Source of the DNA: an uncultured Candidatus Saccharibacteria bacterium
GTDB taxonomy: Bacteria; Patescibacteriota; Minisyncoccia; Phycocordibacterales; JACOZG01
DNA length: 64,000 nucleotides
Assembly (NCBI GenBank): GCA_964651115.1
Contig: CAZYXJ010000001.1
Coordinates: 106,509-170,508, forward strand
Direction of reading: 5' to 3'
Made by a program: the position numbers and the translations under genes. The notes beneath the pieces are model-generated. The model was given only the letters and a program-made list of their open reading frames with translations, ran no database searches and had not been told where the DNA came from. Shown piece after piece: positions 5,494 through 57,300 of the stretch; positions within the stretch are counted from its first letter, which is position 1; the number at the start of each line of letters is the position of its first letter.

Positions 5494-7176
5494 TCAACGA
5501 GTCTCGGCGAGCAAATATTCTGGCCGATTAGCGACGAGCCAATTGATGACCTGTCGCATCGCAAGAGTGGCCCCGACTAAATTATTTCGACTCCCTTGCT
5601 CCAAAACAACCACGTAAGCAAAACGAGGATTTTCGTAAGGCCAAAAACCCATCGTCCAGGAGTTAACGTCAGCTTTCGATACGCCAAGCTCCGCCGTTCC
5701 CGTCTTGCCCGCGATCGCTACCTCGTTAACCATTAATCCCTTGGCTGTCCCTTCCAGCACGGCCTGACGCATCCCCTCGCGGACAATTTGCAAATTCTCC
5801 GGCGAAACAGCCTTAAGCGGCGTGCTCACTGGCTGATCGGTGAGCGAAATAGTTGGTCGAACGAGAGACCCCGTCGCCAGCGCTCCCACCACGCGCACCA
5901 TCTGCAGAGGCGTGACCTGAAAGCCGTACTGCCCGATCACGGTATGATAAGTGTCGCCTAAACGCCAAGGCTCGCCGTCAAAAACTTTTTCTTTCCATTC
6001 GGGGGTCGGAATATTTCCGGTCTCTTCGCTACCAAATCTAAAGCCGGTGGCCTCACCCAGACCAAAAGCTTGGGCATAACGATCAATTGCCCGGATGCCG
6101 ATCCCCCGCTGATCCTCATAGCCGCCACCCACGGCGTAAAAATAGACGTTAGAAGACACCGCCAAGGCCCGACGAAGATCGACCCAACCGTGCGCCTTCC
6201 AATCGCGAAAAATCGACTTCTCTTTGGGATTGTAAGGATTAGCAATCGCGATTTCGCCGCTAGAATAAATCTGCTTAGTGGGTGAAATCACTCCTTCTTG
6301 CAAGGCGGCGGCGGCCATGATCGTTTTTACAATCGAGCCGGGCGTGTAGAGTCCACGCAAAACGCGATTAAGAAACGGGAGACGCTCATCGGCGAGATAG
6401 CCATTGATCGCGGCTCGATCCTGACCACCCGACAACACGCCAGACCCGTACTCTGGTGCGCTGACCATCGCCAACAATTGCCCCGTCTTAACATCCATAA
6501 TCAAACCGGCTCCACCGCGAAAGCCATACTCCGACATCATCGACTCAATCGCTCGACCTAGTTCTCCCTGGACTCCCAAATCAATCGAGAGCCGGACGGG
6601 TGCTCCGCTTTTGGGCACCTCCAACACATGCTCCGAGACCACCTGGCCACCCACATCCACCTCTTCAATTTTTAAACCCCGTCCACCCTCCAACTCCTCG
6701 TTAAACCAGCGCTCAGCTCCCTCACGCCCTACCATCTGCTTGGGGTGAAAGTTGCCGGTGGCCATCTCCTCTTCGTTAGGATAACCAATGTAGCCAACCA
6801 GGTGCGCTAACCCAGGCGCCTCATTATACGCTCGACCAAGTTCGGCATCGTTCCAAGCCAACTCCTCACCATTACGATCCTCGATAATTCCCCGTTCGGC
6901 AAAAATTGGGATGTGCCGCAAAGTATTGTTGTGACTACGCTCGGCCAAAGCATTACCTTGCACCACCTGCAATTGAAAAACTTTGCCTAAAAAAATAACC
7001 AGCACCAGAGCAAACAAGCCGGCCAAAAAATAAAACGAGAGTTTACTAATCGGTTTTTCTAGTCGTCCCTCGAATTGTTGAGTGTTGAACGAAGGCAGAT
7101 TGCGCGCGTCGAGCAAAACCTCATCCGGATCTAGATCGCGATAGGCCTGCTTAAATCGACGACGAAAAGGGGTCAT
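5494..7176 (-). CDS. mrdA: Penicillin-binding protein 2 (elongasome transpeptidase)
   Basis: 560 aa with an N-terminal TM. Transpeptidase motifs are present: SxxK (GSIVK), SSN (AVSSNVYF) and KTGTA (AGKTGTAE). It directly follows mreD. Confidence 0.8.
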   Translation of the reverse strand: MTPFRRRFKQAYRDLDPDEVLLDARNLPSFNTQQFEGRLEKPISKLSFYFLAGLFALVLVIFLGKVFQLQVVQGNALAERSHNNTLRHIPIFAERGIIEDRNGEELAWNDAELGRAYNEAPGLAHLVGYIGYPNEEEMATGNFHPKQMVGREGAERWFNEELEGGRGLKIEEVDVGGQVVSEHVLEVPKSGAPVRLSIDLGVQGELGRAIESMMSEYGFRGGAGLIMDVKTGQLLAMVSAPEYGSGVLSGGQDRAAINGYLADERLPFLNRVLRGLYTPGSIVKTIMAAAALQEGVISPTKQIYSSGEIAIANPYNPKEKSIFRDWKAHGWVDLRRALAVSSNVYFYAVGGGYEDQRGIGIRAIDRYAQAFGLGEATGFRFGSEETGNIPTPEWKEKVFDGEPWRLGDTYHTVIGQYGFQVTPLQMVRVVGALATGSLVRPTISLTDQPVSTPLKAVSPENLQIVREGMRQAVLEGTAKGLMVNEVAIAGKTGTAELGVSKADVNSWTMGFWPYENPRFAYVVVLEQGSRNNLVGATLAMRQVINWLVANRPEYLLAETR

Positions 7177-7448
7177 GACGACACCATTATACGACTTTTG
7201 ATCTCGGGGGCGAGCACCACCAACATCAGACTAATCACGGTAAGGGGTAAACGGACGAAAAAGGGCCACAGCAAGAAAAAGCCATACCACCAATCGAACA
7301 ACAGAGCCACCAGCACCAACTCGTAATAATATTTAAACTGCCACAAAGCGACGAGGGCCAAGGCTAAACTGCCCCACCACGGCAGACTAAAAATTGACCA
7401 CAGGAGCGCCAGAGTAAAAATCACTCTAGAAATCATGGATCTCGACAA
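7173..7448 (-). CDS. mreD: Rod shape-determining protein MreD-like
   Basis: 91 aa polytopic hydrophobic protein between mreC and the PBP2 gene. Confidence 0.5.
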   Translation of the reverse strand: MSRSMISRVIFTLALLWSIFSLPWWGSLALALVALWQFKYYYELVLVALLFDWWYGFFLLWPFFVRLPLTVISLMLVVLAPEIKSRIMVSS

Positions 7449-8247
7449 AGCGCAAGGCGCCGATATTTAGGGGAAAACGGAAAAAGATTTTCTGCGAGGA
7501 ATCGCTCGGGTCGCTCTCAATCTCACCGATCCGACCCAAGTAGCGCTCCACCGGCGAGCTCGAGGCCGTCACCACGTCGCCCACCATCACCGGGACGCCC
7601 CGCGGCAACGTCACCTCAAAGTTGCCGTTGCCGCGGCCGCGGGCTTTGACCGCGGCGGTGCTGGTGCCCACCAGCACGGGCGTCTCTGACCCGGGAGCAG
7701 AAAGCAGTCGAATGCGTACCAAATGATCGTTAACCTCACCCACTAAACCAAGCAACAAGGAACCACCGAAGGTCACTGGCGCTCCCACCCGAACTAACTG
7801 ACCAGTCGGAATCTCGGCAATTAACGTATCGTAGGGACTGGCCCAACCCAGGGACAAAACTCGACCAATCGTCACCGCCTCAGTCGAAGTAGCCTTAAAC
7901 CCCAATTGGCCCAACAGCGCCGCCCGCTCAGCGCGCACCTGATCATAATCGAGTAAGCGCACCTCCAGCTCGGCCACCTTGGTTTGCAACGCCTGATTTT
8001 GCGCCAACAAGCGATCTTTCCCACCCAACAAAGCCGACAGAAAATCTAGTCCACCCAAGGTGGCCTGACCAGCCGTTTTCGCCAGTGGCTCCACCACCGT
8101 CGCGGCCGGAGACAAGCGATCAGCCAGCCAACTACCGCCCCAAACCAAAAAGGCGGCGGCCGCGATCAGTACCAAGAAACGCCGCCAACGCTTAGGCCGC
8201 GGCCGAGCAAAACGATCAGGACCGGTCGGGTATTGAGTCATCGTCAT
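7426..8247 (-). CDS. mreC: Rod shape-determining protein MreC
   Basis: 273 aa with an N-terminal TM, a coiled-coil and beta-rich C-terminal domains. It is downstream of mreB. Confidence 0.75.
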   Translation of the reverse strand: MTMTQYPTGPDRFARPRPKRWRRFLVLIAAAAFLVWGGSWLADRLSPAATVVEPLAKTAGQATLGGLDFLSALLGGKDRLLAQNQALQTKVAELEVRLLDYDQVRAERAALLGQLGFKATSTEAVTIGRVLSLGWASPYDTLIAEIPTGQLVRVGAPVTFGGSLLLGLVGEVNDHLVRIRLLSAPGSETPVLVGTSTAAVKARGRGNGNFEVTLPRGVPVMVGDVVTASSSPVERYLGRIGEIESDPSDSSQKIFFRFPLNIGALRFVEIHDF

Positions 8248-9280
8248 TAATTAGAATATCACGATAACGCTCCAGATCATCGAGCACCACCCCCGTCCCT
8301 CGGACCACCGCCGTGAGGGGATCCTCGGTGACGGTAATCGGCAACTTGAGAGCGTGAGCCAAGAGCTCGGGCATCCCCTTAATCAAGGCGCCACCGCCAA
8401 CCAAAATGATTCCCTTGTGCATGACGTCAGAAATTACCTCCGGCGGCGTAGACTCAAGAACTTCCTTAATCGAATCCACCAAAATTTCGATCGACGGGCC
8501 AATCGCCTCTTTAATATCCGCGTCCGTGATCACCACTTCCTTAGGCAAACCCGTCACCAAATCTCTTCCGCGGACAGTCGCGTCAAGCGGCTCCTTAGAC
8601 TTCCAAACCGAACCGATGGCAATTTTTACGTCCTCGGCCGTTTTTTCGCCGAGTAAAATTTTAAACTCATCACGAATATAAGTCATGATGTCGGAATTTA
8701 AGCGGTCGCCGGCAATCTTTAAATTTTTTGCTCGCACAATGCCACCCAAAGAAATCACCGCGATATCCGTCGTCCCACCGCCAATATCAATAATCATACT
8801 GCCAACGGGTTCGTGAACCGGCAACCTAATGCCCACGGCGGCGGCCATCGGCTCCTCGATAATGGCGACTTCACCAGCGCCGGCATTACGCGCGGCATCT
8901 CGCACCGCCCGCACCTCGACGTTAGTCACCGAGACCGGAACGCCAATCACCACGCGCGGTCGCAAAAACTTTTTCGGACTAAACTCTTGCGCTCGCCGAA
9001 TAAAATACGCCAGCATCTCCTCGGCGACCTCAAAATTAGAAATCACCCCATCAACCAACGGTCGGATCACCGAGACGTGCGCCGGCGTCCGACCGACCAT
9101 TTGTTTAGCGTCGGTACCAATGGCCACTACCCGACCCGTCTTCTCGTTAATCGCCACGATTGTCGGCTCGTTAATAACGATGCCGTGACCTTTGATATAA
9201 ACGAGCGTGTTGGCCGTACCCAAATCAATGCCGATATCGGTAGACCATGAACGCTTTAGCTTGTCCCAAAATTTAGCCAT
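8216..9280 (-). CDS. mreB: Rod shape-determining protein MreB
   Basis: 354 aa actin-fold ATPase with GIDLGTANTLVY phosphate-1 and DIGGGTTD motifs. Confidence 0.9.
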   Translation of the reverse strand: MAKFWDKLKRSWSTDIGIDLGTANTLVYIKGHGIVINEPTIVAINEKTGRVVAIGTDAKQMVGRTPAHVSVIRPLVDGVISNFEVAEEMLAYFIRRAQEFSPKKFLRPRVVIGVPVSVTNVEVRAVRDAARNAGAGEVAIIEEPMAAAVGIRLPVHEPVGSMIIDIGGGTTDIAVISLGGIVRAKNLKIAGDRLNSDIMTYIRDEFKILLGEKTAEDVKIAIGSVWKSKEPLDATVRGRDLVTGLPKEVVITDADIKEAIGPSIEILVDSIKEVLESTPPEVISDVMHKGIILVGGGALIKGMPELLAHALKLPITVTEDPLTAVVRGTGVVLDDLERYRDILINDDDSIPDRS

Positions 9281-12834: not shown

Positions 12835-13440
12835 CTAGACGCGGGGCAAAACCAGCGCCAAGTGCTCCAAAACTAGTTTAGGCAAGCCCGCTCGCGCGGC
12901 CAAAAAACGTCCAGCTTGCACCAGTTCGGCCAGGCCCCGGCGATAGCCGCCATGGTGGCGCGCCTTAGCGCGCCACGCCTCACCCAGCGCCTGGAGACCG
13001 GCCAAGGCTGCCACTCGCCCCTCTCCAGCGCTGGCTTCGGCGGCCAATAATTCCTCGACTAAGTCCAAACGGATCTCCGGTTTGGCCGACAAAAATTTCT
13101 GGGCCCAAACATTCTCCGGCGCCGCGCCCCAAATAATCTCCACCCGCGAGAGCAGAGTCGGCAACAAGCTTGTGCCCCGCGGCACCACCAAAATAAAATA
13201 ATGTCCTGGTGTCGGCTCCTCAAAAGTTTTCAGGAGGGCCTGTTGAGCTTCCAGGGTCACGCTCCCCGCCTCAATTAACCAAAATCGACTTTCTTCTCCC
13301 AGGGTCCGGCTTTGAGATTCTTTGAGAGTCCGACTGTCATCAATCGTTAAAACCGCAAACTGTTGACGAATCAAACCCGGACCAAGATCAATCAAAATTT
13401 CTGGAGGCAAATTTCCAAAACAAACTCGCGCATGATGCAT
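12835..13440 (-). CDS. holB: DNA polymerase III delta-prime-like protein (short, lacks recognisable P-loop region)
   Basis: 201 aa. It carries the clamp-loader box QQALLKTFEEPTPGHYFILV and the sensor-2-like LLPTLLSRVEII, but is much shorter than typical HolB. Confidence 0.5.
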   Translation of the reverse strand: MHHARVCFGNLPPEILIDLGPGLIRQQFAVLTIDDSRTLKESQSRTLGEESRFWLIEAGSVTLEAQQALLKTFEEPTPGHYFILVVPRGTSLLPTLLSRVEIIWGAAPENVWAQKFLSAKPEIRLDLVEELLAAEASAGEGRVAALAGLQALGEAWRAKARHHGGYRRGLAELVQAGRFLAARAGLPKLVLEHLALVLPRV

Positions 13441-13442
13441 GC

Positions 13443-14456
13443 CTAATTTTTGCTCATGACGCTTTTTTTGTAAACGTCGAGATGCTCAAGCGCGATACCC
13501 GTGCCTTTGGCCACGCAATAGAGAGCTTCTTCCGCCAAATGAGCCCGCACTCCCGTCCGCCGGAAAACTAATTCCGGCAGATTAGCCAACAAGGACGAAC
13601 CGCCAGTCATAATAATCCCATGATCAATAATGTCGGCCGCTAGCTCGGGAGGCGTATCTTGGAAAACAGTTTTAATCGCCCGAACAATTTCGCGCAACTC
13701 ACTATCGATGGCCCGCACAATCTCATTAGTCTTAATCTCCGCCGACCGAGGCAACCCCGTCAAAAAGTCCCGACCGCGAATGTCGTAAGCCAACTCCTCC
13801 TCCAGCGGCACCGCGGAGCCAATCTTCATTTTAACTTCTTCCGCCGTCTTATCACCGATAGCCAAATTGAAAGTTTTCTTGATGTAATCAGCGATGGCTT
13901 GATCAATTTTATTACCAGCACACTTAACTGACGTGGCCGCCACGATACCACCGAGCGAGATTACCGCCACGTCCGTCGTCCCGCCGCCGATATCACAAAT
14001 CATATAGCCCCGCGGTTCATAGATCGGGATGCCGGCACCAATCGCCGCCAAAATCGGTTCCTTAACCACGTACGCGTTTTTCGCGCCCGCGCGGATCGCG
14101 GCCTCAATCACCGCGCGCCGCTCCGTCGAGGTAATGCCCGCCGGGACCGAAATCAAAACATCGGGTTTGAGAAAATTATAACGCCCCAAAGCCTTGCCGA
14201 TATAATAGCGCAACATAATCTCCGTCACGCGATAATCAGCAATCACGCCATCTTTAAGGGGTCGATAAGCCGTGATCCCGTCGGGCGTCCGACCAATCAT
14301 CTCTTTGGCTTCCAAACCCACGGCTAAAACTTTTTTATCTAATTCCGAAACCGCCACCACTGATGGCTCATTAAGAACAATCCCTCGGCCCGGAACAAAA
14401 ACCAAGGTATTGGCCGTGCCCAAATCAATTCCCAACCGTCGGACGAAAAAAGCCAT
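13443..14456 (-). CDS. Second MreB/Mbl-like actin homolog
   Basis: 337 aa with GIDLGTANTLVF, DIGGGTTD and the full actin-fold ATPase. It is a distinct paralog of the mreB at 8216-9280. Confidence 0.85.
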   Translation of the reverse strand: MAFFVRRLGIDLGTANTLVFVPGRGIVLNEPSVVAVSELDKKVLAVGLEAKEMIGRTPDGITAYRPLKDGVIADYRVTEIMLRYYIGKALGRYNFLKPDVLISVPAGITSTERRAVIEAAIRAGAKNAYVVKEPILAAIGAGIPIYEPRGYMICDIGGGTTDVAVISLGGIVAATSVKCAGNKIDQAIADYIKKTFNLAIGDKTAEEVKMKIGSAVPLEEELAYDIRGRDFLTGLPRSAEIKTNEIVRAIDSELREIVRAIKTVFQDTPPELAADIIDHGIIMTGGSSLLANLPELVFRRTGVRAHLAEEALYCVAKGTGIALEHLDVYKKSVMSKN

Positions 14457-17749: not shown

Positions 17750-18777
17750 TAACGTCGAACGGGGGTAATAAGAAATAAATAACGATCAGCCGTTGGCCGG
17801 CTAAAAATTGGGGTAATCACTCCGCTCGTTCCCGTTTGATCAACCTCCAGGCGGATTTGATCAGAGAAGGTGCTCTGAATACGGGCCAAAATAGCCGCAT
17901 CCGTTTCTAAACTGCCAGACGAAGGCGCCAAAACCACACCCGTGGACGGCGAACGTCCAGCTGACGAACCGCCGCTAGCTTGTTTGGCCAAAACTTGCAA
18001 TTGGGCCGAAATCTGATCGGTAATATAGCGTTCGATCTCGGCCGTCGTCGTAGCGGCAAAAACTCCGCCACCCGCCAAATGATAACTACTTGGGCTGGCC
18101 ACCCCCTCCACGCCCAAAAATTTTCGCCAATTAGCGGCCACTCGCAGACGAATCAAGCGCCAACGCTCAGGCAAAGTCGACCAAAACGACTGAGCTTGAT
18201 CCAACTCCTCGACCGCACCGCTCACCACCGTTTCAGTCGCCGTCGCCGCCACCGATCCCACCGCTCCCGCGGCCGCCACCATCCCGGAAGAAAGTGGCAC
18301 CTCCGGCCAATCAATCGACCAAGCCGTCAGAATGGCCAAGCGCTGTTCGATCTTCGGCCACCAAGCGTAAGTCAGCGGCCAAGCCAAAGAGGTGCCGGAA
18401 CCAACCAGCATCAACAGAGCCACGGCCACTAAGGCTCGATACATTTTTAAATTATTATTTCTTTCTCGAGATTGTTGGCGCGCGCGAGAAATTTCGTCCT
18501 TAACCTCACCCACTCGCGCGCGCAATAATTGGCGACTAGCCGGATCAGCCAGTCGAGCGAGCGCGCCTTCGGCAATAAACCAGTCACGGCCGACGCGGCG
18601 ACACTCCAGTTGGCCTCGTTCACACATAAAAATTAGATCGTCAGCACTCCAAGACGAACGAGACTGCGCTTCTTCCAAAGAAACGTACGTAATCACGCTC
18701 TCTAGTATACCATAATCAAAAATGCTAAGGTTTAATCCTATGCACATCGTGAGCGTCATTCCTTTGGCGCGGGGCAT
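17749..18777 (-). CDS. Hypothetical protein with N-terminal excisionase/MerR-like HTH and one TM
   Basis: 342 aa. Residues ~30-75 look like a helix-turn-helix, followed by a TM and an Ala/Ser-rich extracytoplasmic part. The start codon is uncertain. Confidence 0.35.
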   Translation of the reverse strand: MPRAKGMTLTMCIGLNLSIFDYGILESVITYVSLEEAQSRSSWSADDLIFMCERGQLECRRVGRDWFIAEGALARLADPASRQLLRARVGEVKDEISRARQQSRERNNNLKMYRALVAVALLMLVGSGTSLAWPLTYAWWPKIEQRLAILTAWSIDWPEVPLSSGMVAAAGAVGSVAATATETVVSGAVEELDQAQSFWSTLPERWRLIRLRVAANWRKFLGVEGVASPSSYHLAGGGVFAATTTAEIERYITDQISAQLQVLAKQASGGSSAGRSPSTGVVLAPSSGSLETDAAILARIQSTFSDQIRLEVDQTGTSGVITPIFSRPTADRYLFLITPVRR

Positions 18778-20626
18778 CTTCCACGATGATCTGACCTACT
18801 TCTCGGCCAAACCGCTGGCCCTCGGAGCAGTGGTAACGGTGCCCGTCCGCAAAAAATCAATCCCCGCTGTCGTGGTGGCCTGTAAACCAGCCCAAGCCGA
18901 AAAAACGGCCCTGCGGCGGGCTTCCTATGCCTTAAAAAAAGTTGGCCGCCTCCAAACGGTCGGACTAGTCCGGCCAGGGTTTATTAGCGCCGCGGAAAAA
19001 ATCGCCGAATATGCCGCGGCGCCACTTGGCGGCATCCTGCCCGCCCTCATCTCTCAATCTCTAGTTGCCAATCTGAGCGCCCTCGAGCCAGCCGCTCCCG
19101 GCAACGAACAGGCGTCCACCGGTCTGCGACCCGATCTACAGGCCCTCCAAAATCAAGATGACGAACGCTGGTCGACTTATAAAAGCATTGTGCGCGAAGA
19201 ATTCGCCCGCACTCAATCCGTCCTCTTAATTGTCCCCACCCATCTCGACGCTCTGCGCGTCGCCGAAACCTTAAGCCGAGGCATTACCGATTTCACCTTC
19301 ATTCTCCACGGAAAATTAAGCAAAAAATCGCTCGTCGAATCATGGAATGGCGCGCTTAAAGAAACTCGTCCGGTGCTCATCATTACCACCCCCGCCTTTG
19401 CGGGTCTTCCCCGTCACGATCTTAAAACTTTTATCATTGAACGAGAAAACTCGCCCAGCTACAAAATGCTCGCGCGACCGTTTGTCGACTGGCGGCGATT
19501 TTTAGAACAACTCGCGGCGACCACCGGCGCCCGCGTCCTCTATGGCGACAGCGCCCTGAGAGTCGAAACTCTCTGGCGCCTCGAACGAGGCGAGCTCATG
19601 CCCGCCGAAAGCGTTAAACAACGCCTAGTCACCACGGCGGAAAATTTCTTGATCACTTCGAAAAGCGGCGAACCACTAGCGCCAGAAACCTTAGAGTTGA
19701 TTCGCGCCGGCCTGGCCGCTTCGGAGCATCTATTTATTCTGGCCGGCCGGCGCGGCCTGGCTCCCCTGGTGGTTTGCGACGACTGCGGTGAACCAGTCCT
19801 CTGCGCGCGTTGCCAAGGACCGGTCGCTCTCCACGAACGTCGAGCGGCCCCAGAGCAGGATTCGCGTTACTTCCTCTGCCATCGCTGTGGTCAAGAAAGA
19901 TCGGCTAAAGAAAAATGCCAAACTTGCGAGAGTTGGCGTTTACGCGAACTAGGAATTGGCATTAATCGAATTAGTCAACGATTGCAGGAGGCGTTCCCCG
20001 AAGCCCACATCGTCACCGTCGAAAGCGACACGCAAAACACTCCCAAGCGCACTCGCGATCAAATGAGAAACTTTAGCCAAGCCGCTAGTGGCATCTTAGT
20101 CGGCACGGAACTGGCTCTCCATTATTTGCTTACCCCGATTGATACGGCGATTATCGTCGCCGCCGACTCACTTTTAGCCCTCCCTGATTTTCGCATCCAT
20201 GAACGACTCTACTCTCTCACCGCTCGCGTTCGCTCCCTGGCCCGAAAAAACTTCGCCATCCAAACCCGTTACCCCGAAGAACCAGTCTTTAATTACGCCC
20301 TCACCGGCAACACCATCGAATTTTATCGCCACGAATTGGCCGATCGAGAATCATTTGATTATCCGCCCTTTAAAACGCTGATTAAAATCACACGCGAGGG
20401 CTCTCGCGCCGTCGTTAGAGAAGATATGAAACGGTTAGCCGCTCACCTCTCGACTTTCCAGCCCCAAATTTATCCCTCCTTCCAAGAACCGGGCTCTGAC
20501 AACTACCGCTTGCAAGCTCTAATCCGTCTGCCTCCCGAGCGCTGGCCTAACCCCACCCTCGTTTCGTTCTTGAAATCCTTGCCGCCATCGTTTATTGTCA
20601 ATGTTGACCCGGCCGATATCCTTTAA
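18722..20626 (+). CDS. priA: Primosomal protein N-prime (PriA)-like, helicase motifs I/II degenerate
   Basis: 634 aa with a PriA-like N-terminal 3-prime-DNA-binding region and a Cys-rich zinc module (CDDCGEPVLCARCQG...CHRCGQ...CQTCES). No GxGKT Walker A is present, and the DEEH box is replaced by EREN in the conserved FIIERENSPSYK context. Confidence 0.6.
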   Translation: MLRFNPMHIVSVIPLARGIFHDDLTYFSAKPLALGAVVTVPVRKKSIPAVVVACKPAQAEKTALRRASYALKKVGRLQTVGLVRPGFISAAEKIAEYAAAPLGGILPALISQSLVANLSALEPAAPGNEQASTGLRPDLQALQNQDDERWSTYKSIVREEFARTQSVLLIVPTHLDALRVAETLSRGITDFTFILHGKLSKKSLVESWNGALKETRPVLIITTPAFAGLPRHDLKTFIIERENSPSYKMLARPFVDWRRFLEQLAATTGARVLYGDSALRVETLWRLERGELMPAESVKQRLVTTAENFLITSKSGEPLAPETLELIRAGLAASEHLFILAGRRGLAPLVVCDDCGEPVLCARCQGPVALHERRAAPEQDSRYFLCHRCGQERSAKEKCQTCESWRLRELGIGINRISQRLQEAFPEAHIVTVESDTQNTPKRTRDQMRNFSQAASGILVGTELALHYLLTPIDTAIIVAADSLLALPDFRIHERLYSLTARVRSLARKNFAIQTRYPEEPVFNYALTGNTIEFYRHELADRESFDYPPFKTLIKITREGSRAVVREDMKRLAAHLSTFQPQIYPSFQEPGSDNYRLQALIRLPPERWPNPTLVSFLKSLPPSFIVNVDPADIL

Positions 20627-20634
20627 TCCAAGCC

Positions 20635-21183
20635 ATGCGCCAACATCAACCCCACTCACCCCATCAAGCCCCGCCCACCATTGTCCAAAATGGGGCAGAA
20701 GTTTTGCGCCAAGTAGCCGAGACCGTGAACGAGGCCGAATTTAATACTCCCGCCCTGCAAGAATTGGTGACCAGGATGGAAGAAGCACTAGCCAGCTGTG
20801 ACGATGGGGTTGCCATTGCCGCGCCGCAGATTGGTGTCGCTAAAAGAATTTTCGTGGTGGCTCCTCAGGCTTTTGATGATGGCCCCGAAACTACCGCCAA
20901 CCATCGCGTCTTCATCAACCCGATCATTACTAAAAAATCTAAACGAACGAGCGTGGTTGATGAGGGTTGTCTCTCGGTGCGCTGGCTTTACGGCAAAGTT
21001 CGACGCTCCACCAAAGCGACCGTCGAGGCCTACGACCTTAAGGGGAAAAAGTTTACTCATCACGGCACCGGTCTCCTGGCGCAAATTTTCCAGCACGAAA
21101 TTGATCACCTCAACGGCGTTCTATTTATCGATCAAGCTAGCCAACTAGAAGAAATTAAACCCAGCGACAATGATGCCGCCTAA
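20635..21183 (+). CDS. def: Peptide deformylase
   Basis: 182 aa with the motifs GVAIAAPQIG, EGCLS and HEIDHL. Confidence 0.9.
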   Translation: MRQHQPHSPHQAPPTIVQNGAEVLRQVAETVNEAEFNTPALQELVTRMEEALASCDDGVAIAAPQIGVAKRIFVVAPQAFDDGPETTANHRVFINPIITKKSKRTSVVDEGCLSVRWLYGKVRRSTKATVEAYDLKGKKFTHHGTGLLAQIFQHEIDHLNGVLFIDQASQLEEIKPSDNDAA

Positions 21184-21985
21184 ATTCGTTTTCTGGGGCA
21201 GTGACGATTTTTCGATTGGGGTCTTAAATGGCTTAGCCGCCGTCGGCCAGCAACCCGCGTTAATCGTCGGCACTCCACCCCGTATCAAGCGCGGCCAACC
21301 GCAACCAGCGGCCACGGCTCAGTGGGCAGAAAGTCACCAGATCCCCTTCACTATCGACCCCGCTACGATCCCGCCCCAAGCCTATGATTTTTTTATCGTC
21401 GCCTCATATGGCCAGATCATTTCCCCCGAATTACTGCGCCTGGCCAAACTGGGGACAATTAACGTCCACCCCTCACTCTTGCCGAAATACCGCGGGGCCA
21501 CGCCTCTCCAGAGCGCCATCCTAAACGGCGAAAGCGAAACTGGCGTTACCCTGATTGAACTGGACGAACAGCTTGATCATGGACCAATTTTAGCGCAGGC
21601 CACCCAGCCCCTCGGCCACTTAAATTTTAGCGAGTTAAGAGATCTACTGGCCCGCCGCGGAGCCGAATTGCTGGCCGAAATTCTGCCCGCTTACTTGGCG
21701 CAAACGCTTAAACCACAAACCCAAAATCACGACCAAGCTACGTTTACGCGTAAATTTACCAAAGCTGATGCCGAACTAAAATCTACTGACACTCCGATAA
21801 TTAAATTTAGAAAAGTCCTCGCCCTCAATCCCGAACCGGGCACTTGGCTAGTTGACGAACGCGGACAACGATTAAAAATTAAAACTGCCCGCCTCGAGGA
21901 CGGACAGTTTATTCCTGAAAAAGTGGTTCCTGAAGGTAGGCGTGAAATGACTTGGTCAGATTATCGCCGTGGCCAGCAACCCTAG
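21170..21985 (+). CDS. fmt: Methionyl-tRNA formyltransferase
   Basis: 271 aa. It has a formyl-transferase N-domain with the HPSLLPKYRG motif and overlaps def in the classic def-fmt arrangement. Confidence 0.88.
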   Translation: MMPPKFVFWGSDDFSIGVLNGLAAVGQQPALIVGTPPRIKRGQPQPAATAQWAESHQIPFTIDPATIPPQAYDFFIVASYGQIISPELLRLAKLGTINVHPSLLPKYRGATPLQSAILNGESETGVTLIELDEQLDHGPILAQATQPLGHLNFSELRDLLARRGAELLAEILPAYLAQTLKPQTQNHDQATFTRKFTKADAELKSTDTPIIKFRKVLALNPEPGTWLVDERGQRLKIKTARLEDGQFIPEKVVPEGRREMTWSDYRRGQQP

Positions 21986-28394: not shown

Positions 28395-29075
28395 ATGAGA
28401 GCGCTTAACTTGGCGGGCGGCGAATATTATCATCTTTTAAATCGCGGAATGGCAAAGCGTCCTATCTTCCATGACAACGATGATTATCTGCGTTTTCTCT
28501 TTCTGATCACCCATCTGCAATCCGGAAAATCCTTCCTTAATATGTCCCGCGACATTAACCTGTTTAAAAAAACTTTTTCTCGACCTGATCAACACCGAGT
28601 GTTGATCAATCAAGAATACGCCAAAGCGGCCTCCCACCAACCACTAGTAAAGCTCCTGGCCTTTTGTCTAATGCCCAATCACTTTCATCTTTTAGTTTTA
28701 GCGATTCAAGATAATGGCATCGCTCGATATTTACAAAGAATCCTAAATGCCTACGCCAAGTATTATAATTTGAAATACCAACAAACCGGCCACCTGTTCC
28801 AGGGCCCATATCGAGCCGTTCACGTTTCTGACAACGAGCAACTACTCTACACCTCGGCTTACGTGCACAAAAATTGTTGCGAACTATTAGCCTGGCAAGA
28901 AAACTTTGCAGAATATCCTTGGTCTAGCTTGCAAGATTATTGCGTTTTTAATCGCTGGAGCACCCTACTCGATCCCCAGATCATTATTGATCAATTCGAT
29001 AACCCGACTGAATATTTGTTGTGGGTGAAAAACAACCCCGCTAAAACCGAAAATTTCGGGGTTGATTCTGATTAA
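28395..29075 (+). CDS. Y1 (HuH) transposase of the IS200-like/REP-associated tyrosine transposase family
   Basis: 226 aa with YHLLNRG...PIFHDNDDY, the HuH motif MPNHFHLL, GHLFQGPYRAV, catalytic-Tyr region LLYTSAYVHKN and YPWSSL. These match the COG1943-type Y1 transposases. It is flanked and interrupted by cognate palindromes. Confidence 0.8.
   Translation: MRALNLAGGEYYHLLNRGMAKRPIFHDNDDYLRFLFLITHLQSGKSFLNMSRDINLFKKTFSRPDQHRVLINQEYAKAASHQPLVKLLAFCLMPNHFHLLVLAIQDNGIARYLQRILNAYAKYYNLKYQQTGHLFQGPYRAVHVSDNEQLLYTSAYVHKNCCELLAWQENFAEYPWSSLQDYCVFNRWSTLLDPQIIIDQFDNPTEYLLWVKNNPAKTENFGVDSD
28586..28608. repeat. REP-like palindrome TGATCAACAC-CGA-GTGTTGATCA (copy 3, inside the transposase ORF)
   Basis: Identical 23-mer to copy 1 at 11053. 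It encodes RPDQHRVLINQ within a region that looks like an insertion relative to family members. Confidence 0.65.
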
Positions 29076-39260: not shown

Positions 39261-39333
39261 TCCGCGATAGCTCAGTTGGTAGAGCGCCTCGCTGTTAACG
39301 AGGATGTCCCAGGTTCGAGCCCTGGTCGCGGAG
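39261..39333 (+). tRNA. tRNA-Asn (anticodon GTT)
   Basis: A manual cloverleaf fits: acceptor tccgcga/tcgcgga, D-arm gctc-agttggt-agagc, anticodon arm cctcg-ctGTTaa-cgagg, variable loop atgtc, T-arm ccagg-ttcgagc-cctgg, discriminator G. There is a TATAAT 19 nt upstream. Confidence 0.85.
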
Positions 39334-40959
39334 CCTGACTGACAAAAGTGGCACATGATGCCACTTTTGTCGTATGTGGCCTGGCTTTTTAGAGGTTCGA
39401 GCGTGCTCTATTTCCTGCATAATAGCTTCTCGTGCTTTTATGAGGCTCAAAAAGAAAGAACTGTAAGAAAGCTGGATCTTTTTGTCTGAAATGGTGAGGT
39501 TCGAGCCAAGGCATGCGAGTATCGCTCTTTTGGTCTTTTCATCGCCATTTGCGTACCAAAGGTGGGCGTAGCAGGCAAAGTCAAAGGTTTGCTCTGAAAG
39601 TTCAGCCCATTGTTCTACAGCCTTATTCTTGATCTTCAACTCGTCCTCAAGAAGGCCCTTCTTTCTGAGTAGTTCAGACTTTAAGGACTGGTATTCCTGT
39701 TCGCCGATAACGGTTCGATTCTTGTTTGATGGTGCAGTAAAGTTAAGGGTCAAAGATTGCAGCTGCTGCGTTACTTCTTCACATTCCTTGTGCTTGGTCC
39801 TTATTGCGATTGAATCACTCTCAGCCTCATTCTTGCGGACCTCATGGACATGGCGAACCGCCCAGTCACGATACTCCTCTGAAATTCTTATATCTTTAAG
39901 GATCGCCCCGATCTGTAAGTGTAGTAGTTTTACTTCCACATGCTTTTCAGTACAGCCAGCGTCATATCTCTTTTTGGTGCAGTTGTAGTAAACGTAATGA
40001 TGGACGTTACCGTTCTTGCAACGCTTTACTTTGGCTTGGGCAGTGATGCTGCAACCACAGGTGGCACATTTCATAAGACCAGTAAAAGCAAACATCCTCT
40101 CTTCGTGTCGTGGGCGCGGTTGGTTGGTCCTACCCATAACCTTTTGTACCTGATCAAATTCTTCTTTGGTTACCATCGGCGCGTGCGCTCCTTTATTCCA
40201 ATTACCACTGTGGAGCGGAAACTCAAACCAGCCATAATAAAATGGGTTACCGAGGACTGCATAAATTGCTGATCGAGAAAGATGTTCACCGCCGATATTT
40301 CTACGTGGGACCGTTCGGAGATTCAACTGTTTTCTTGAAATATTCCAAATCTGGGCCATTGAATAATTGCCGGTAAGCGCAAGATCAAAGAGTCTTCGGA
40401 CCAACGGGAATCTATCAGGATCTTTTTCTAAGGTCTTGTAACCCTTTTGTTTATTGGGTGTGTTGAGATATCCAATCGGCGCACCGCTTGGCATCCAACC
40501 ATCTCTCACTTTCTTTTGCAGACCTCGCTTTACATTCACTGATAGGTCTCGAATAAACTGATTGGCCATGCCAAGTTCTACTTGCATCATGAGCACGTTG
40601 TCTGTTGGGTAATAGGTTCGACCGAAGGTAACGATTTGAGATACGGCACTCTGCTGCAACATCCAACTTATCTGGCCACCATCGACAGGATTACGGGCTA
40701 GGCGGTCCAGTTTCCAGCATAGGATGCCATTGGCTTCGCCTTTATAGATCCTCTCAAGCATTGAGTTGAATACCTTCCTACCTGGTTTCTTGGCTGATTG
40801 TGATTCTTCAAGGATATCCAGGATGTGTAAACCTTGATCCTTTGCAATCTTCAAAAGCTCGTCTTTCTGGGCATCTATGGACGCTGCCTGGCGATCTTCT
40901 GCCTCGCTGGATTTACGAGCATAGAGGAAGTATTTAATTGGTTGGTTTGTCTGGTTCAT
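39295..40959 (-). CDS. Large serine recombinase (integrase/resolvase family)
   Basis: 554 aa. The N-terminal catalytic domain has YARKSSEAEDRQAASIDAQ (nucleophile Ser region) and a recombinase domain, followed by a zinc ribbon (CATCGC...CTKKR) and a coiled-coil. The C-terminal ~25 codons read through the hairpin and tRNA 3-prime end on the opposite strand. Confidence 0.8.
   Translation of the reverse strand: MNQTNQPIKYFLYARKSSEAEDRQAASIDAQKDELLKIAKDQGLHILDILEESQSAKKPGRKVFNSMLERIYKGEANGILCWKLDRLARNPVDGGQISWMLQQSAVSQIVTFGRTYYPTDNVLMMQVELGMANQFIRDLSVNVKRGLQKKVRDGWMPSGAPIGYLNTPNKQKGYKTLEKDPDRFPLVRRLFDLALTGNYSMAQIWNISRKQLNLRTVPRRNIGGEHLSRSAIYAVLGNPFYYGWFEFPLHSGNWNKGAHAPMVTKEEFDQVQKVMGRTNQPRPRHEERMFAFTGLMKCATCGCSITAQAKVKRCKNGNVHHYVYYNCTKKRYDAGCTEKHVEVKLLHLQIGAILKDIRISEEYRDWAVRHVHEVRKNEAESDSIAIRTKHKECEEVTQQLQSLTLNFTAPSNKNRTVIGEQEYQSLKSELLRKKGLLEDELKIKNKAVEQWAELSEQTFDFACYAHLWYANGDEKTKRAILACLGSNLTISDKKIQLSYSSFFLSLIKAREAIMQEIEHARTSKKPGHIRQKWHHVPLLSVRLRDQGSNLGHPR
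39341..39371. other. Perfect 13-bp hairpin immediately 3-prime of tRNA-Asn
   Basis: gacaaaagtggca-catga-tgccacttttgtc. It is a possible tRNA terminator and/or recombination site, and lies inside the 3-prime end of the recombinase reading frame. Confidence 0.6.
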
Positions 40960-42586: not shown

Positions 42587-45568
42587 TTACTTCTTCATTT
42601 TCTTAATCACATACTCGAATACGCGCTCTTGCACAAACTTCTTAAGCTCAGGACTCTGGTCTAACTTTTGATACAAGCTAAAGTGTTTATCGAGCACGCT
42701 GACGAGCTCATCTTGGAACAGCTGGTCGAATTTCAACTTCGCCGCATCCTTGCTGTTGTTCATGACTGAACCCTGAAGAACCTCGCTTTCAAGAAGTCGC
42801 TTACTTAGATCGTTGAGAATAACCCTGTCTCCATCATTGAAGTTTGTACCATACCGATCATTAACTTCTTTGATGATTCGTGACAAAGCGTCCCTTTCAT
42901 CTTCAGAAAGAGTCTTGGCATCACCACCACCCATCGGTTCGATAATACCTTCTGCATTTTCAAGCTGAAGATGCATCTCACCCTTCTTTTCTATTCTGTA
43001 TGTTTCCATGTCTATTGCTTGGAGTACTTCGTATGGCAATGGATTTTCTCTCTTTGGAAGCTTTCTAATCAAGTACTTCAAGAAGATAAATAACTTTTCT
43101 AATTGTGGATCTTCAAACGTCACAATCTGAGATATGAAAGCGTATTTTTTAAGGTAGTCGAAAGCTGTAGATTTGAAACCTTCCATTTCTTCTTCGGTAA
43201 GATTCTCATTGTTGATTCGAGAGACTACACTGTCAATGATGTGATTCAACTTGTCAGGAGTTGCTCGGGAGTAAAGTTCATCAATAAATCCATTCACTTC
43301 AAAGTCGGTGAAGAATTTAAAGCCTCGCACGTCGCGCTCAAGATCATGCAGGATATTTGGGTCAGTCGCCTCTGATAGGACCGTAGTTGTGTAATAAGGC
43401 TGGAAAGCTTCTTTGATGTCATCTGTTTGATTTACGAAATCTAGCACAAAGGTGTCGTCTTTTCCGTACGTAGTTCGGTTGAGACGAGACAAAGTCTGGA
43501 CCGCACTTACACCGCCAAGTTTCTTATCTACGTACATCACCGACAAGAGTGGCTGGTCAAATCCAGTCTGGAACTTCTCAGCTACAATCAAGAATTTATA
43601 ATCATCATTCTTAAATTCTTCAGCAGTTTGACTCTCTGGGACCTTATTCATCTGTCCTTCCGTATACTCAAGCTTAGTATCAACATCCTTAACTGTTCCC
43701 GAGAAAGCCACGAGAGCTTTATGCCCATATCCTTTTTCTTTGAGGTACTTATCAAACGCGATCTTATATCTGACCGCATGAAGTCGTGACTTGGTTACTA
43801 CCATAGCCTTTGCCTTTCCATTGATAAGTGAGGAAATCTTTTCTTCAAAGTGCTCCACCATAATAGCCACCTTCTTATCGATTGCATGTTCGTGTCGCTC
43901 GACATAGCCAACCATGAGTCGCTGGGCTTTCTTTTTATCGAACTCAGGGTCATCCTCAACTTTCTTCAAAAGCCCAAAGTAGGTTTCGTATGTTGTGTAG
44001 TTTTTGAGCACATCAAGAATAAACTTCTCTTCAATCGCTTGCTTCATTGAGTAAAGGGAGAAGGGGCCGAATTTACCAGTTAAAGGATCTTCAGTACCAA
44101 AGAGTTCAAGTGTTTTTTGCTTTGGAGTTGCAGTAAATGCAAAGAATGACAGATTTGGAGACGATACCTTTCGGGCTTTCATGCGTTCAACAATCTGATC
44201 TTCAATTGTTTTGAATAATTTCTCTTCTTCCTGGCTTTCTTTTTCAGCTTCATCGAGAGTGAGGACCTGGCGTAGATCGGCGGCTGATTCTCCTGATTGA
44301 GATGAGTGTGCCTCGTCAATAATGACAGCAAACTTTCTACCCTCAACTTTTTCTATGGCATCCACAATAACCGGAAACTTCTGCAAAGTTGTAGTGATAA
44401 TCTTTACACCCGACTCAAGGGACTCCTTGAGCTCTTTACCACCGTTTTCTACATGCTTAACCAGGCCAGTAACTTGGCTAAAGCTTTTAACTGTATCTGA
44501 AAGCTGTCTATCGAGTACACGTCGATCAGTTACAACTATCACGCCGTCAAAAACATTCTTTCCTTCAGTGTCGTGGAGCTCGGCCAATCGGTGTGCAGTC
44601 CAAGCGATAGTATTACTCTTTCCGGAACCAGCGCTGTGCTGGATTAGGTAGTTCTTACCTGAGCCATGTATCCTGGTATCCTCGACAATGCGTTTTACCG
44701 TCTCGAGCTGGTGATATCGAGGAAAGATAACTTTTTCTTCTTTACGCTTTTTACCATTCTTATCTTCCTTTTCTTCAGTCACTTCTTGTATGAAGTTTCC
44801 AATCAAATCAAAGATGCTATCTTTGGACCAGATTTCTTCCCAGAGATAGTGAGTCTTATATTTGCCCTTAGGTGCTTCAGGATTGCCTGACGACCCTTTA
44901 TTGCCCTTATTAAAGGGTAAGAAGTAGGTAGTGAGACCGGTGATACGGGTCGTCATATACGCCTGTTCTGTATCGAGCGCAAAGTGTGTGAGGCATCGCT
45001 TGAATGTTATAAGCTTCTCCTTTTGGTCGCGGTCCGTCTTGTACTGCGAAATGGCATTGATAACATTTTGGCCTGTGAACTGATTTTTGAGTTCAGAAGT
45101 AAACAGAGGGAGTCCATTCACAAAGATCACCATGTCTATGGAGTTCTCGTTTTTAGCGCTGTACTTTACCTGACGCATTACGCTCAAAATGTTCCCTGCG
45201 TAGTCTGCAAGGGTCTCAGGATTCTTGTCATTCTCTGGCTTGAAGTATGCAAGGCGGATTATGACACCTCGATCCTTTACTCCCTCCCTGAGCACACTGA
45301 GAAGACCACGAGAAAGAAGCTCTTCATCTAACCTAGCCAAGAATCTTTCAGCGACACTGTCTCCATATTGTTCAACAAGTTTTTCCCAATTATCTTTCTG
45401 GGTACTCTGAATAAACTCCAGGACCAGTTCAGTATCCATGCAGAGTTCCTTGTTGTATGAAGAATTAGAACGCTTTCGGTAGTTATGCAGACTTACAAGC
45501 TCCTGCTCGATAAATTCTTCAAATCCTGATTCTTTTGTATTGGTTTTTGTTGTCATGTTATTCGGCAT
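42587..45568 (-). CDS. hsdR: Type I restriction enzyme R subunit
   Basis: 993 aa with an N-terminal nuclease region, SF2 motor motifs (HSAGSGKS Walker A, VIIDEAHSSQ DEAH box) and a C-terminal helical domain. Confidence 0.9.
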   Translation of the reverse strand: MPNNMTTKTNTKESGFEEFIEQELVSLHNYRKRSNSSYNKELCMDTELVLEFIQSTQKDNWEKLVEQYGDSVAERFLARLDEELLSRGLLSVLREGVKDRGVIIRLAYFKPENDKNPETLADYAGNILSVMRQVKYSAKNENSIDMVIFVNGLPLFTSELKNQFTGQNVINAISQYKTDRDQKEKLITFKRCLTHFALDTEQAYMTTRITGLTTYFLPFNKGNKGSSGNPEAPKGKYKTHYLWEEIWSKDSIFDLIGNFIQEVTEEKEDKNGKKRKEEKVIFPRYHQLETVKRIVEDTRIHGSGKNYLIQHSAGSGKSNTIAWTAHRLAELHDTEGKNVFDGVIVVTDRRVLDRQLSDTVKSFSQVTGLVKHVENGGKELKESLESGVKIITTTLQKFPVIVDAIEKVEGRKFAVIIDEAHSSQSGESAADLRQVLTLDEAEKESQEEEKLFKTIEDQIVERMKARKVSSPNLSFFAFTATPKQKTLELFGTEDPLTGKFGPFSLYSMKQAIEEKFILDVLKNYTTYETYFGLLKKVEDDPEFDKKKAQRLMVGYVERHEHAIDKKVAIMVEHFEEKISSLINGKAKAMVVTKSRLHAVRYKIAFDKYLKEKGYGHKALVAFSGTVKDVDTKLEYTEGQMNKVPESQTAEEFKNDDYKFLIVAEKFQTGFDQPLLSVMYVDKKLGGVSAVQTLSRLNRTTYGKDDTFVLDFVNQTDDIKEAFQPYYTTTVLSEATDPNILHDLERDVRGFKFFTDFEVNGFIDELYSRATPDKLNHIIDSVVSRINNENLTEEEMEGFKSTAFDYLKKYAFISQIVTFEDPQLEKLFIFLKYLIRKLPKRENPLPYEVLQAIDMETYRIEKKGEMHLQLENAEGIIEPMGGGDAKTLSEDERDALSRIIKEVNDRYGTNFNDGDRVILNDLSKRLLESEVLQGSVMNNSKDAAKLKFDQLFQDELVSVLDKHFSLYQKLDQSPELKKFVQERVFEYVIKKMKK

Positions 45569-46803: not shown

Positions 46804-48108
46804 TTATATTTTAATTTTCCCTGTTACAACGTTTGATATCAGTGAGAACTTAAACTCCTTAAGACTCAAAATTGTTTTTTCGACCTTCTTTATGGCCTCG
46901 TCAAAAAGAGGGATCTTTTTGTTCAAAACGTTAAGTATCTTTTCTTGCTCCTTTATTGGAGGTAGTGCAATTAGAAAATCCTTATACTTCTCAGCACTCA
47001 CATTTTGTATTGTTGATCGAATAAATATTGAATTAATCCATTTCCAGTAGTAGTCAGACTTTGTTATGTATTCCAAATATTCAGAACTGATCTTCTTTTG
47101 ATTAACGTTCATTCTTATCAAGTATCCGGCATAGCAGCAGGGACCCCACTCTTTTTTATATCTAAAAGATTTTCCAACCGTACCACCTGTTCTTGCAAAC
47201 AAAATATCACCCTCTTCCAGAAGATATGGCTTAGCAAGTTCAAGATCCAAAGACTTAAACGTGTCTTCTCTTAAATTACCCGCTTCATCAATATCGCTGA
47301 TTCTTATGAATCTAGGTTGAGATTTATCATTGTGTAATCCCGCTTCATTAGCTCCGTACTGAAGTGGTTTCTTTGCAAGGAATTTCATTTTTTGAATTTC
47401 CCATCCTTCTGGTATTTCTTTAAAGCTGCTTATTTTGGTTTTAATAAAATTCGCTTTCGAATCAGTCCCTTTTGTTACAGCAAGGTTAATAGCAGCTAAT
47501 CGTTTCTCGTTTAATAAACCGATTTGCTTTTGTTTTTTCTCTACAATTTCATCTAGACAGACAGTTTTTTTATCAAGATACACTGCAATCTTTTTTTGCT
47601 GCTCTGGACTAGGAATACTTATCATTATTCTCTTCATTTCACTCTCTCGGGTGGTCCAGAGATCATCAACAATGCCTCGTCCCCAGCGGTAAAATTCTTC
47701 TGAAAAAAGTTTACTCCTAAACAAGTAATGGAAATACTTTGAATCGAATGATTGGTCTCTTTTTCTTAGAACATTGTAAACAAGAGAAACACCACCTTCG
47801 TACTCAGACATCCCAACAGCACCCTTTCTGTCTGATCGACCGTTGATAGCAATATCACCAACTTTTACGAGCTTGCGCAAACTGCCCTCTGCAACTTTAG
47901 CTGCATTATCAATTTGCTTTTTAATTCCATCGTAAGTAACCGACAATGGTTCGTGCGTAACTTCTGTGACTTTTTGATTTGGAAAATCAAAAATAGAGAC
48001 AACTTTCGACACACCCCATTCTTTAGGAACTTTACCCAACCACTCAACGCCTGAATCTTTGTATTCAGGATACTTCTCATATTTCTTTGTGAGTTTGAGT
48101 GTTTGCAT
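46804..48108 (-). CDS. hsdS: Type I restriction-modification specificity subunit
   Basis: 434 aa with two target-recognition-domain halves separated by conserved helical spacers, the typical HsdS layout. Confidence 0.8.
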   Translation of the reverse strand: MQTLKLTKKYEKYPEYKDSGVEWLGKVPKEWGVSKVVSIFDFPNQKVTEVTHEPLSVTYDGIKKQIDNAAKVAEGSLRKLVKVGDIAINGRSDRKGAVGMSEYEGGVSLVYNVLRKRDQSFDSKYFHYLFRSKLFSEEFYRWGRGIVDDLWTTRESEMKRIMISIPSPEQQKKIAVYLDKKTVCLDEIVEKKQKQIGLLNEKRLAAINLAVTKGTDSKANFIKTKISSFKEIPEGWEIQKMKFLAKKPLQYGANEAGLHNDKSQPRFIRISDIDEAGNLREDTFKSLDLELAKPYLLEEGDILFARTGGTVGKSFRYKKEWGPCCYAGYLIRMNVNQKKISSEYLEYITKSDYYWKWINSIFIRSTIQNVSAEKYKDFLIALPPIKEQEKILNVLNKKIPLFDEAIKKVEKTILSLKEFKFSLISNVVTGKIKI

Positions 48109-51289: not shown

Positions 51290-52432
51290 TTATTTATTAA
51301 AGAGATTAATGTATTCCGTTAGGTAGAAGATTCGATCTTTCTTGAGCCCCGTCTTTTCTGAGAACAAACCAAGTTTCTGAAAATCCATTGCGATCGCTGA
51401 TGCGGTCGGGAATGTTACCGACAGCATTGATTCAATATCCCTAATCGTCACAACCGGCTGTGAGAACAAGCAGCGCAAAAGTTCCTTACCAAGCTTTTGG
51501 CGCTTGATGCCCATACCTTTTTCGATTGTTGTTTCGTACTTCTTTCGGAGATCAATAATCTTTTCGAGTGTTTGTCGAGAATTCTTTGCTGTCTCCAATA
51601 CTCCAGTGAGAAAGAAACGTAGCCAGTGTTCGATGTCGTGTGTCTCGCGGACACGTGAAAGACCATCGTAATATTGCGGACGATGTTTTTCGAAGAAATC
51701 TGAAATGTAGAGAGTTGGTTTTTGAAGAATACCAAGGCTTACCAAGTGGAGCGTGATCATAAGTCGACCAATACGTCCGTTACCATCGAGGAATGGGTGG
51801 ATCGTTTCAAACTGATAGTGTGAGATAGCTATCTTGATGAGATCCGGAATATCTACTTCCTTGTTGTGCCAGAATCTTTCCAGGTCACTCAGTAACTCGC
51901 TGACCTCTTCGTAGTGAGGCGGAATGAACACTGCATCTTTGAGAGTTGCACCACCGATCCAGTTTTGGCTGCGGCGAACTTCTCCTGGCAACTTTGTATA
52001 CCCACGCACGCTTGAAAGAAGGACCTTGTGTGTATCCTTTACGAGACGCATTGAGAGCGGTAGTTTTTCAAGCTCAGCGATCGAGTAGTTAATCGCTTTG
52101 ACGTAATTCTGAACTTCTTCCCAGTCGTTTCTTTTTTCGGGATCTATTTCAAGCTCGGGCAAGAGTGCCTCATCGAGCTTTGTTTGTGTACCCTCAATTT
52201 TGCTTGAAGTGGTAGCTTCTTTTGCGATGTGCATTTTTATGAAAAAATCCACGTCAGGGACCAACTTTGAAAATGCGTTGAGCTCGCCGAGATATCTCAT
52301 GGCATCGGCAAGAAGCACATCGATGCGCTTGTCTGTCCATTCAAAATCCTTGTTCACTAAAGACGGCTGAAAGCTCTTGTAGCCATCGTGCTGCTTATGG
52401 GTTCCTGACTTGTATTTTTCTGTCATGCACAC
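51290..52432 (-). CDS. Fic/DOC family protein (putative AMPylator) with C-terminal winged helix
   Basis: 380 aa with the Fic motif [12 protein letters not shown]. It is co-oriented with hsdM and lies 8 nt upstream. Confidence 0.85.
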
Positions 52433-57296: not shown

Positions 57297-57300
57297 ATTT

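Follow-up and report, generated by a model that had tools for sequence, protein, structure and literature searches.

A putative PriA pseudohelicase with retained fork-binding and zinc modules in an uncultured Patescibacteria genome

The stretch under study, hereafter the window, comprises 64,000 nucleotides of contig CAZYXJ010000001.1 (assembly GCA_964651115.1, positions 106,509 to 170,508 of the forward strand) from an uncultured bacterium of the Patescibacteria, or Candidate Phyla Radiation (CPR). It encodes a homologue of the replication restart protein PriA, followed by two genes with which priA is classically clustered:

18722..20626, + strand: priA-like open reading frame (ORF), intact, 634 aa, assigned from the ORF list, profile and fold match
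20635..21183, + strand: def (peptide deformylase), with GVAIAAPQIG, EGCLS and HEIDH in the translation
21170..21985, + strand: fmt (methionyl-tRNA formyltransferase), with HPSLLPKYRG in the translation

The true start of the priA-like gene may be ATG 18740 (M7), giving 628 aa, since the family consensus begins at M7 and an AAGG lies 9 nt upstream; in a 96% identical relative (P0001), gene callers chose an even later start, giving 625 aa. The positions orthologous to def in loci L002, L004 and L008 match PF01327, and the fmt orthologues in relatives' loci match PF00551/PF02911. The gene occupies the classic priA-def-fmt cluster, a position seen in the window and in loci L001, L002/L003, L004/L005 and L008. 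The longer order of mreB (opposite strand), priA-like, def, fmt and hpf (opposite strand) is kept in L002/L003 and L004/L005, where identity is 35-38%, and the run of priA-like, def and fmt also accompanies a far more divergent, degenerate form, P0096, in L008. Given this conserved synteny, the protein described below sits in the ancestral priA slot in all loci read.

ORF 18722-20626 is a full-length PriA orthologue, and its homology and fold are secure because TIGR00595, phmmer, hhalign and AlphaFold2/Foldseek agree. TIGR00595 (priA) matches residues 153-602 (E 6e-56, 190 bits, below the equivalog cut-off of 230.35). A phmmer search of the PDB returns PriA chains only, with 4NL4 and 6DGD at E 1.8e-32, and hhalign, comparing a profile of 84 family members with one of 11 canonical PriAs, aligns 615 columns from residue 7 to the last residue (probability 100%, E 4.8e-68). 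The AlphaFold2 model, built on a 99-sequence alignment, has a pLDDT of 92.0 and a pTM of 0.89, and its top nine PDB matches in Foldseek are all PriA: the best is 8FAK_H, E. coli PriA on a fork (TM-score 0.78, E 1e-37), and the second is 6DCR, an E. coli PriA with the winged-helix (WH) domain deleted (TM-score 0.67), with ADP-bound 4NL4 at 0.69. The closer fit to fork-bound 8FAK than to 4NL4 or 6DCR hints, weakly, at a fixed fork-bound-like arrangement of the lobes and the cysteine-rich region (CRR). The Pfam scan gave no match to DEAD, Helicase_C, Zn_ribbon_PriA or PriA_C in the protein, and a borderline one to PF17764, the 3' DNA-binding domain (3'BD; E 1.5e-4, 22.0 bits vs a cut-off of 22.7).

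The domains follow the order of canonical PriA (4NL4, 6DGD, 8FAK; TIGR00595), namely 3'BD, lobe 1, lobe 2 with an eight-cysteine CRR, and C-terminal domain (CTD):

18740..19066, + strand: 3'BD, aa 7-115, from PF17764 and the hhalign register
19067..19132, + strand: variable linker, aa 116-137, an alignment gap with 0.65 bits/column
19133..19621, + strand: RecA-like lobe 1 without a nucleotide site, aa 138-300, from AlphaFold2 secondary structure and alignments
19766..19936, + strand: CRR, aa 349-405, four CxxC pairs, inserted in lobe 2
19937..20281, + strand: RecA-like lobe 2, second part, aa 406-520, from alignments
20375..20623, + strand: CTD, aa 552-634, aligned to the PriA CTD up to the last residue (VDPxxLL)

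An earlier note on this DNA, made from its letters and translations, had called the protein a PriA homologue with a recognisable 3' DNA-binding region and Cys4-Cys4 zinc module. All of this is borne out: by the hhalign result, the fold match and the operon for the homology; for the 3'BD by hhalign from residue 7 and the fold match, which back the borderline PF17764 score; and for the zinc module by eight cysteines in four CxxC pairs that align to the canonical ones. The pairs (C352/355, C361/364, C386/389 and C399/402) are conserved in 143-149 of 149 representatives, that is, the query and 148 further representatives of 50%-identity clusters, and the region is predicted to bind two zinc ions. 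In the 3'BD, Y26 corresponds to E. coli Tyr18 and is invariant, and K72 corresponds to Lys61, both residues of the DNA-binding pocket (PMC5778457).

Nothing in the protein corresponds to the WH domain of about 75 residues found in E. coli-type PriA; a poorly conserved linker of 22 residues stands in its place. This absence is compatible with PriA membership, because short canonical PriAs (640-690 aa, Walker A near residue 150) from Brachyspira, Sphaerochaetaceae and Ca. Peregrinibacteria also lack a WH domain. Like these, of which Brachyspira pilosicoli PriA has 664 aa, the present protein is compact, with its motif I site near residue 150; unlike it, they retain GxGKT, DEEH, SAT and GRAGR. 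A coupling of WH loss to motor loss is ruled out by the same proteins, which keep the motor without the WH domain.

The helicase motifs, by contrast with those of canonical PriA, have been replaced at the following positions, all placed by alignment:

19148..19180, + strand: motif I (Walker A), aa 143-153, QNQDDERWSTY for GVTGSGKTEVY
19433..19462, + strand: motif II, aa 238-247, IIERENSPSY for VDEEHDxSYK
19544..19561, + strand: motif III, aa 275-280, GDSALR for GSATPS
20099..20128, + strand: motif V, aa 460-469, VGTELALHYL for VGTQMLAKGH
20225..20248, + strand: motif VI, aa 502-509, RVRSLARK for QVAGRAGR

Three independent alignments (phmmer, MAFFT with 13 canonical PriAs, and hhalign) agree on this register. 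The conserved Tyr of GKTEVY anchors the Walker A equivalent; no glycine-rich loop remains, and R149 falls in the column of the Walker A Lys (E. coli K230). In motif II, the VIDEEHDSSYK box of K. pneumoniae PriA (4NL4) is matched in the alignments by FIIERENSPSYK (aa 236-247), so that DEEH reads EREN, with Arg at the position of the catalytic Glu and Asn for His. None of the patterns GxGK/R[ST], GK[ST], DExH/DExD, [ST]AT and GRxGR occurs anywhere in the protein, and the two remaining forward frames across the region conceal none of them either. Motifs that are present and were mis-registered, or concealed by a frameshift, are excluded by the common register and by the scan of the forward frames. 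In the AlphaFold2 model, strand 138-143 is followed by two loop residues and then by a helix from D146; the phosphate-binding loop is predicted to have been absorbed into the acidic N-terminus of this helix. The elements that are kept are motif IV RRG (R343, G345), the GT of motif V (G461, T462), PDFR and YPPF, which the protein shares with canonical PriA along with the priA-def-fmt neighbourhood, and the aromatic loop after motif II survives in modified form (Y247, P253, D256).

The profile alignment against PriA puts the motifs where the earlier note had placed them. Its statements that there is no GxGKT Walker A anywhere and that the catalytic acidic and His residues of the DEEH box are replaced hold in the pattern scans and in all three alignments. 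The loss that it described, of motifs I and II, is real for both and was understated, as motifs III, V and VI are gone too.

These replacements are a property of the family. A word-indexed search recovered about 90 relatives of full length (29-96% identity). All are without motif I and have the same kind of replacements, and no precomputed DEAD or Helicase_C match is attached to any of them; canonical PriAs in this search score below 171 bits, and the top canonical matches carry non-CPR names (Gammaproteobacteria, Limnocylindrales). An exhaustive profile search of 1.84 billion cluster representatives found at least 150 proteins, those listed all scoring at least 710 bits, so that the family comprises more than 150 clusters at 50% identity. 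Many such proteins are labelled 'hypothetical protein' and fall under the curated PriA cut-offs. The residues that replace the motifs are themselves conserved: Q143 in 137 of the 149 representatives, R149 in 148, Glu or Asp at position 240 in all, and E242 in 138. Because none of the family members examined departs from this pattern, it is not a product of chance. Conservation runs at about 1.9-2.3 bits/column in all domains, both former motor lobes included. Against the syntenic, 97% identical orthologue on CAYUHC010000008.1 (L001), the ratio of nonsynonymous to synonymous substitution rates (dN/dS) of the priA-like gene is 0.036, compared with 0.044 for eno, 0.066 for def and 0.10 for fmt. 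The gene is functional and, by this value, under strong purifying selection. Degeneration is further advanced in some lineages: in the distant family members P0088 and P0089, about half of the cysteines of the CRR are missing, and probably one zinc site only is retained.

The named relatives belong to Wolfebacteria, Taylorbacteria, Magasanikbacteria, Paceibacterota, Minisyncoccia and the 'Patescibacteria group', and the NCBI taxonomy places both Wolfebacteria and Magasanikbacteria within the Parcubacteria group. The enolase of the window has named neighbours (72-77% identity) in the Parcubacteria group or generic Patescibacteria, and none in Saccharibacteria. The label 'Candidatus Saccharibacteria' on the near-identical metagenome-assembled genome (CAYUHC010000008.1) therefore looks doubtful, because the named relatives of both enolase and the PriA-like protein are all of the Parcubacteria group or Patescibacteria. 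Judged from these sequences, loss of the motor motifs is a clade-wide trait of Parcubacteria-type CPR bacteria and not the peculiarity of one genome. It is not universal in CPR, because a PriA fragment from Peregrinibacteria (P0481) is canonical.

Two further departures from the canonical motor came to light. A second degenerate family (P0093 and P0386-P0406, about 590-660 aa; locus L007, 6001-7899) has no Walker A, reads SEEGN or SEAN at motif II and SSFPS at motif III, and has lost motif VI; several members keep Pfam matches to Zn_ribbon_PriA and/or PriA_C. The NCBI label of this family is 'Candidatus Pacearchaeota archaeon', yet its gene context is bacterial (S20, DNA polymerase III delta, LysM-CHAP, PilM). 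P0095, whose cluster includes HEX7400419.1 from Ca. Limnocylindrales, is 854 aa long and carries the Walker A GPTGSGRTAVY, with Lys changed to Arg and with DEEH, SAT and GRAGR intact; it is a mild natural variant resembling priA300, outside both Deinococcus-Thermus and CPR. The PriA motor seems to have been lost more than once, or once with deep divergence thereafter.

A PriA pseudohelicase is already published as a kind of protein. D. radiodurans PriA is without ATPase or helicase activity, yet it binds single-stranded DNA (dissociation constant about 215 nM), forks (about 108 nM) and its own DnaB; the Deinococcus-Thermus PriAs carry a Lys to Arg change inside GKT and match motifs I and II poorly (Lopper et al. 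2015, PMC4504706). The features that mark these pseudohelicases in sequence are found here, since the protein resembles D. radiodurans PriA in its degenerate Walker A and Walker B (EREN) and in having Arg, R149, at the position of the catalytic Lys, and the role presumed for it, that of an ATP-independent fork binder and DnaB recruiter, would be the same. Unlike D. radiodurans PriA, it belongs to a CPR/Parcubacteria lineage. It is short (634 aa) and without a WH domain. Unlike the Deinococcus-Thermus proteins as described in PMC4504706, it has lost the glycine-rich loop wholly, together with motifs III, V and VI, so that the CPR form appears far more degenerate. Because both the lineage and the pattern of replacement differ, motor loss in CPR was probably independent of that in Deinococcus-Thermus. 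The CPR case is phylogenetically separate and very widespread, and brings no new principle.

A second comparison is offered by E. coli. The K230R change (priA300) removes ATPase as well as helicase and translocase activity from E. coli PriA, which still supports restart via the PriA-PriB route, and primosome assembly by K230 variants needs neither ATPase nor helicase activity (PMC5778457). The present protein likewise has Arg at the Walker A Lys position; K230R and K230A/D are engineered single changes in a motor that is otherwise intact, unlike the natural, clade-wide loss of several motifs seen here. The E. coli variants act with PriB, DnaT and DnaC. These three proteins are, to our knowledge, limited to some Proteobacteria. 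Relative to canonical E. coli and K. pneumoniae PriA, the protein lacks both the ATP site and the WH domain. Since K230R alone suffices to abolish the activity in E. coli, and the present protein has lost the whole P-loop together with the catalytic Glu and motif VI, we infer that the canonical site can neither bind nor hydrolyse ATP.

We consider it likely that this PriA pseudohelicase serves as an ATP-independent scaffold for fork recognition and helicase recruitment. In the model that we propose, the protein keeps the PriA fold, from the 3'BD through both RecA-like lobes and the two-zinc CRR to the CTD. Between the lobes, the nucleotide pocket appears rebuilt: an acidic helix cap that ends in an invariant Arg is predicted in place of the P-loop, DEEH has changed to E-R/K-E-N/S, and motifs III, V and VI are lost. 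Judging from the motif loss, such a protein is most likely unable to bind or hydrolyse ATP or to unwind DNA, would most likely still recognise abandoned forks and D-loops, and would most likely act as a platform that recruits DnaB, either directly or via the loader of the organism. It is conceivable that the charged network of Q143, the acidic residues 146-148, R149, E240 and E242 locks the lobes in a fork-bound-like state or forms a new surface for binding partners. A PriA with fork-binding and zinc modules and no canonical ATP site, as the earlier note had it, appears consistent with every sequence and structure test; its further suggestion of a scaffold-only PriA gains a precedent in D. radiodurans (PMC4504706), and the loss of activity on which it depends would follow from the motifs.

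Several observations weigh against this interpretation. The pocket of the 3'BD is partly changed, with T25 (Ser in most relatives) for Asp17 and a nearly invariant Arg, R43, for Gly37. In the C-terminal 'RW' motif of canonical PriA, a part of the SSB-tail site, the Arg is not conserved across the family. Because the 3'BD pocket is only partly kept and the 'RW' Arg is not conserved, contacts with partners and DNA may differ from those of E. coli PriA. The same changes would allow an altered specificity, and they lend something to the foremost alternative, which we think unlikely, that the PriA fold was recruited to another DNA transaction, such as structural binding of forks or D-loops or a regulatory role, with restart handled otherwise or absent. 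The newly conserved charged residues in the former ATP pocket could, in that case, form a new interface. Yet the gene has been retained at its ancestral priA-def-fmt position, all PriA domains are kept and are about equally constrained, and the motor-dead PriA of D. radiodurans still binds forks and DnaB.

A somewhat smaller chance attaches to a different challenge to the scaffold interpretation, namely that the genome has an active, canonical PriA at another place and that the protein is a diverged paralogue of it. Our reading was confined to the 64-kb window and to 10-kb flanks of relatives, and a canonical PriA does exist in another CPR lineage (Peregrinibacteria, P0481). On the other side, a tblastn search of the window with seven canonical PriAs gives no second priA, and the sole Walker A-like match there (position 58310) is part of a small ORF of AAA_33 kinase-like type; the degenerate form holds the ancestral operon in all loci read, and the best canonical matches carry non-CPR names. 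PriA is normally single-copy, and the genomes in question are small and streamlined.

That the protein remains an ATPase or helicase through an unconventional nucleotide site is improbable in our judgement. A second, weaker nucleotide site has been proposed for E. coli PriA, its location unspecified (PMC5778457), and both lobes are still strongly conserved here; however, none of motifs I, II, III and VI is preserved, a single K230R change abolishes the ATPase of E. coli PriA, and no P-loop is found in the protein or in alternative frames. The view that the gene is decaying or arose by misassembly, for which nothing speaks except the motif loss itself, can be dismissed almost entirely, as the ORF of 634 codons is intact, the same gene occurs in independent assemblies, more than 230 full-length family members exist, the fold prediction is of high confidence, and dN/dS of 0.036 rules out a pseudogene.

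Turning to possible partners of the proposed scaffold, the 64-kb window encodes no DnaB, DnaC/DnaI, DnaD or DciA, as judged from Pfam scans of 30 ORFs and a reading of the other translations. The sole replisome component in the vicinity, at 12835-13440 (-), is a short protein of 201 aa resembling delta' of DNA polymerase III. It matches only positions 79-155 of PF13177; its orthologue in L002 has 227 aa. The N-terminal portion of the clamp-loader fold, with the P-loop, appears to be missing, and the protein may be another trimmed replication protein of ATPase fold in this lineage.

The remainder of the window holds several features of other kinds. Two MreB paralogues (7426-9280 and 13443-14456 (-)), MreC and a PBP2-like transpeptidase (5494-7176) make up a complete rod-shape set in what is presumably an ultra-small bacterium; in distant relatives, too, the second mreB is found immediately upstream of the priA locus. 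An IS200-like Y1 transposase (28395-29075, +) separates eno from gpmI. In the 97% identical L001, the next gene follows directly after eno with no Y1 transposase between, and the insertion in the window may be recent; the arrangement of eno and Y1_Tnp is also present in Logan contig L010. From 39261 to about 58000, beside tRNA-Asn (39261-39335), lies a probable integrated element, where the GC content falls from about 0.53 to about 0.41. Apart from an HTH_36 protein, it carries:

39295-40959, - strand: large serine recombinase (Resolvase + Recombinase + Zn_ribbon_recom), ORF overlapping the 3' end of tRNA-Asn
42587-45568: type I restriction-modification HsdR
46804-48108: HsdS
48110-49294: DUF2130, within the type I restriction-modification system
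49299-51281: HsdM
51290-52432: Fic protein
54969-57362: HMA-domain P-type ATPase

GC skew is negative in all 2-kb bins except two near-zero bins in the low-GC element. Because the cumulative skew falls almost uninterrupted, to -3.8, the window is without a replication origin or terminus.

A full-text literature search returned no report on PriA or replication restart in Patescibacteria, CPR, Saccharibacteria or Parcubacteria, and nothing on DciA in CPR. PriA may be under-counted in surveys of CPR genomes, because the family scores below curated cut-offs and is often labelled 'hypothetical protein'. A second and more thoroughly degenerate lineage would support the notion that the core function of PriA is fork recognition and helicase recruitment, not unwinding. 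A natural minimal PriA of about 630 aa, without WH domain or motor, would be useful for dissecting the scaffold function, and the motor-less form would be something that sets replication apart in the hard-to-culture, ultra-small CPR bacteria. We tentatively entertain a broader possibility, in which motor loss is old and fixed in much of CPR/Patescibacteria, encompassing the Parcubacteria-group family and the P0093 family, with the pocket rebuilt rather than decayed. If this were true, ATP-independent, scaffold-only restart would be the usual mode in a considerable part of bacterial diversity and not a peculiarity of Deinococcus.

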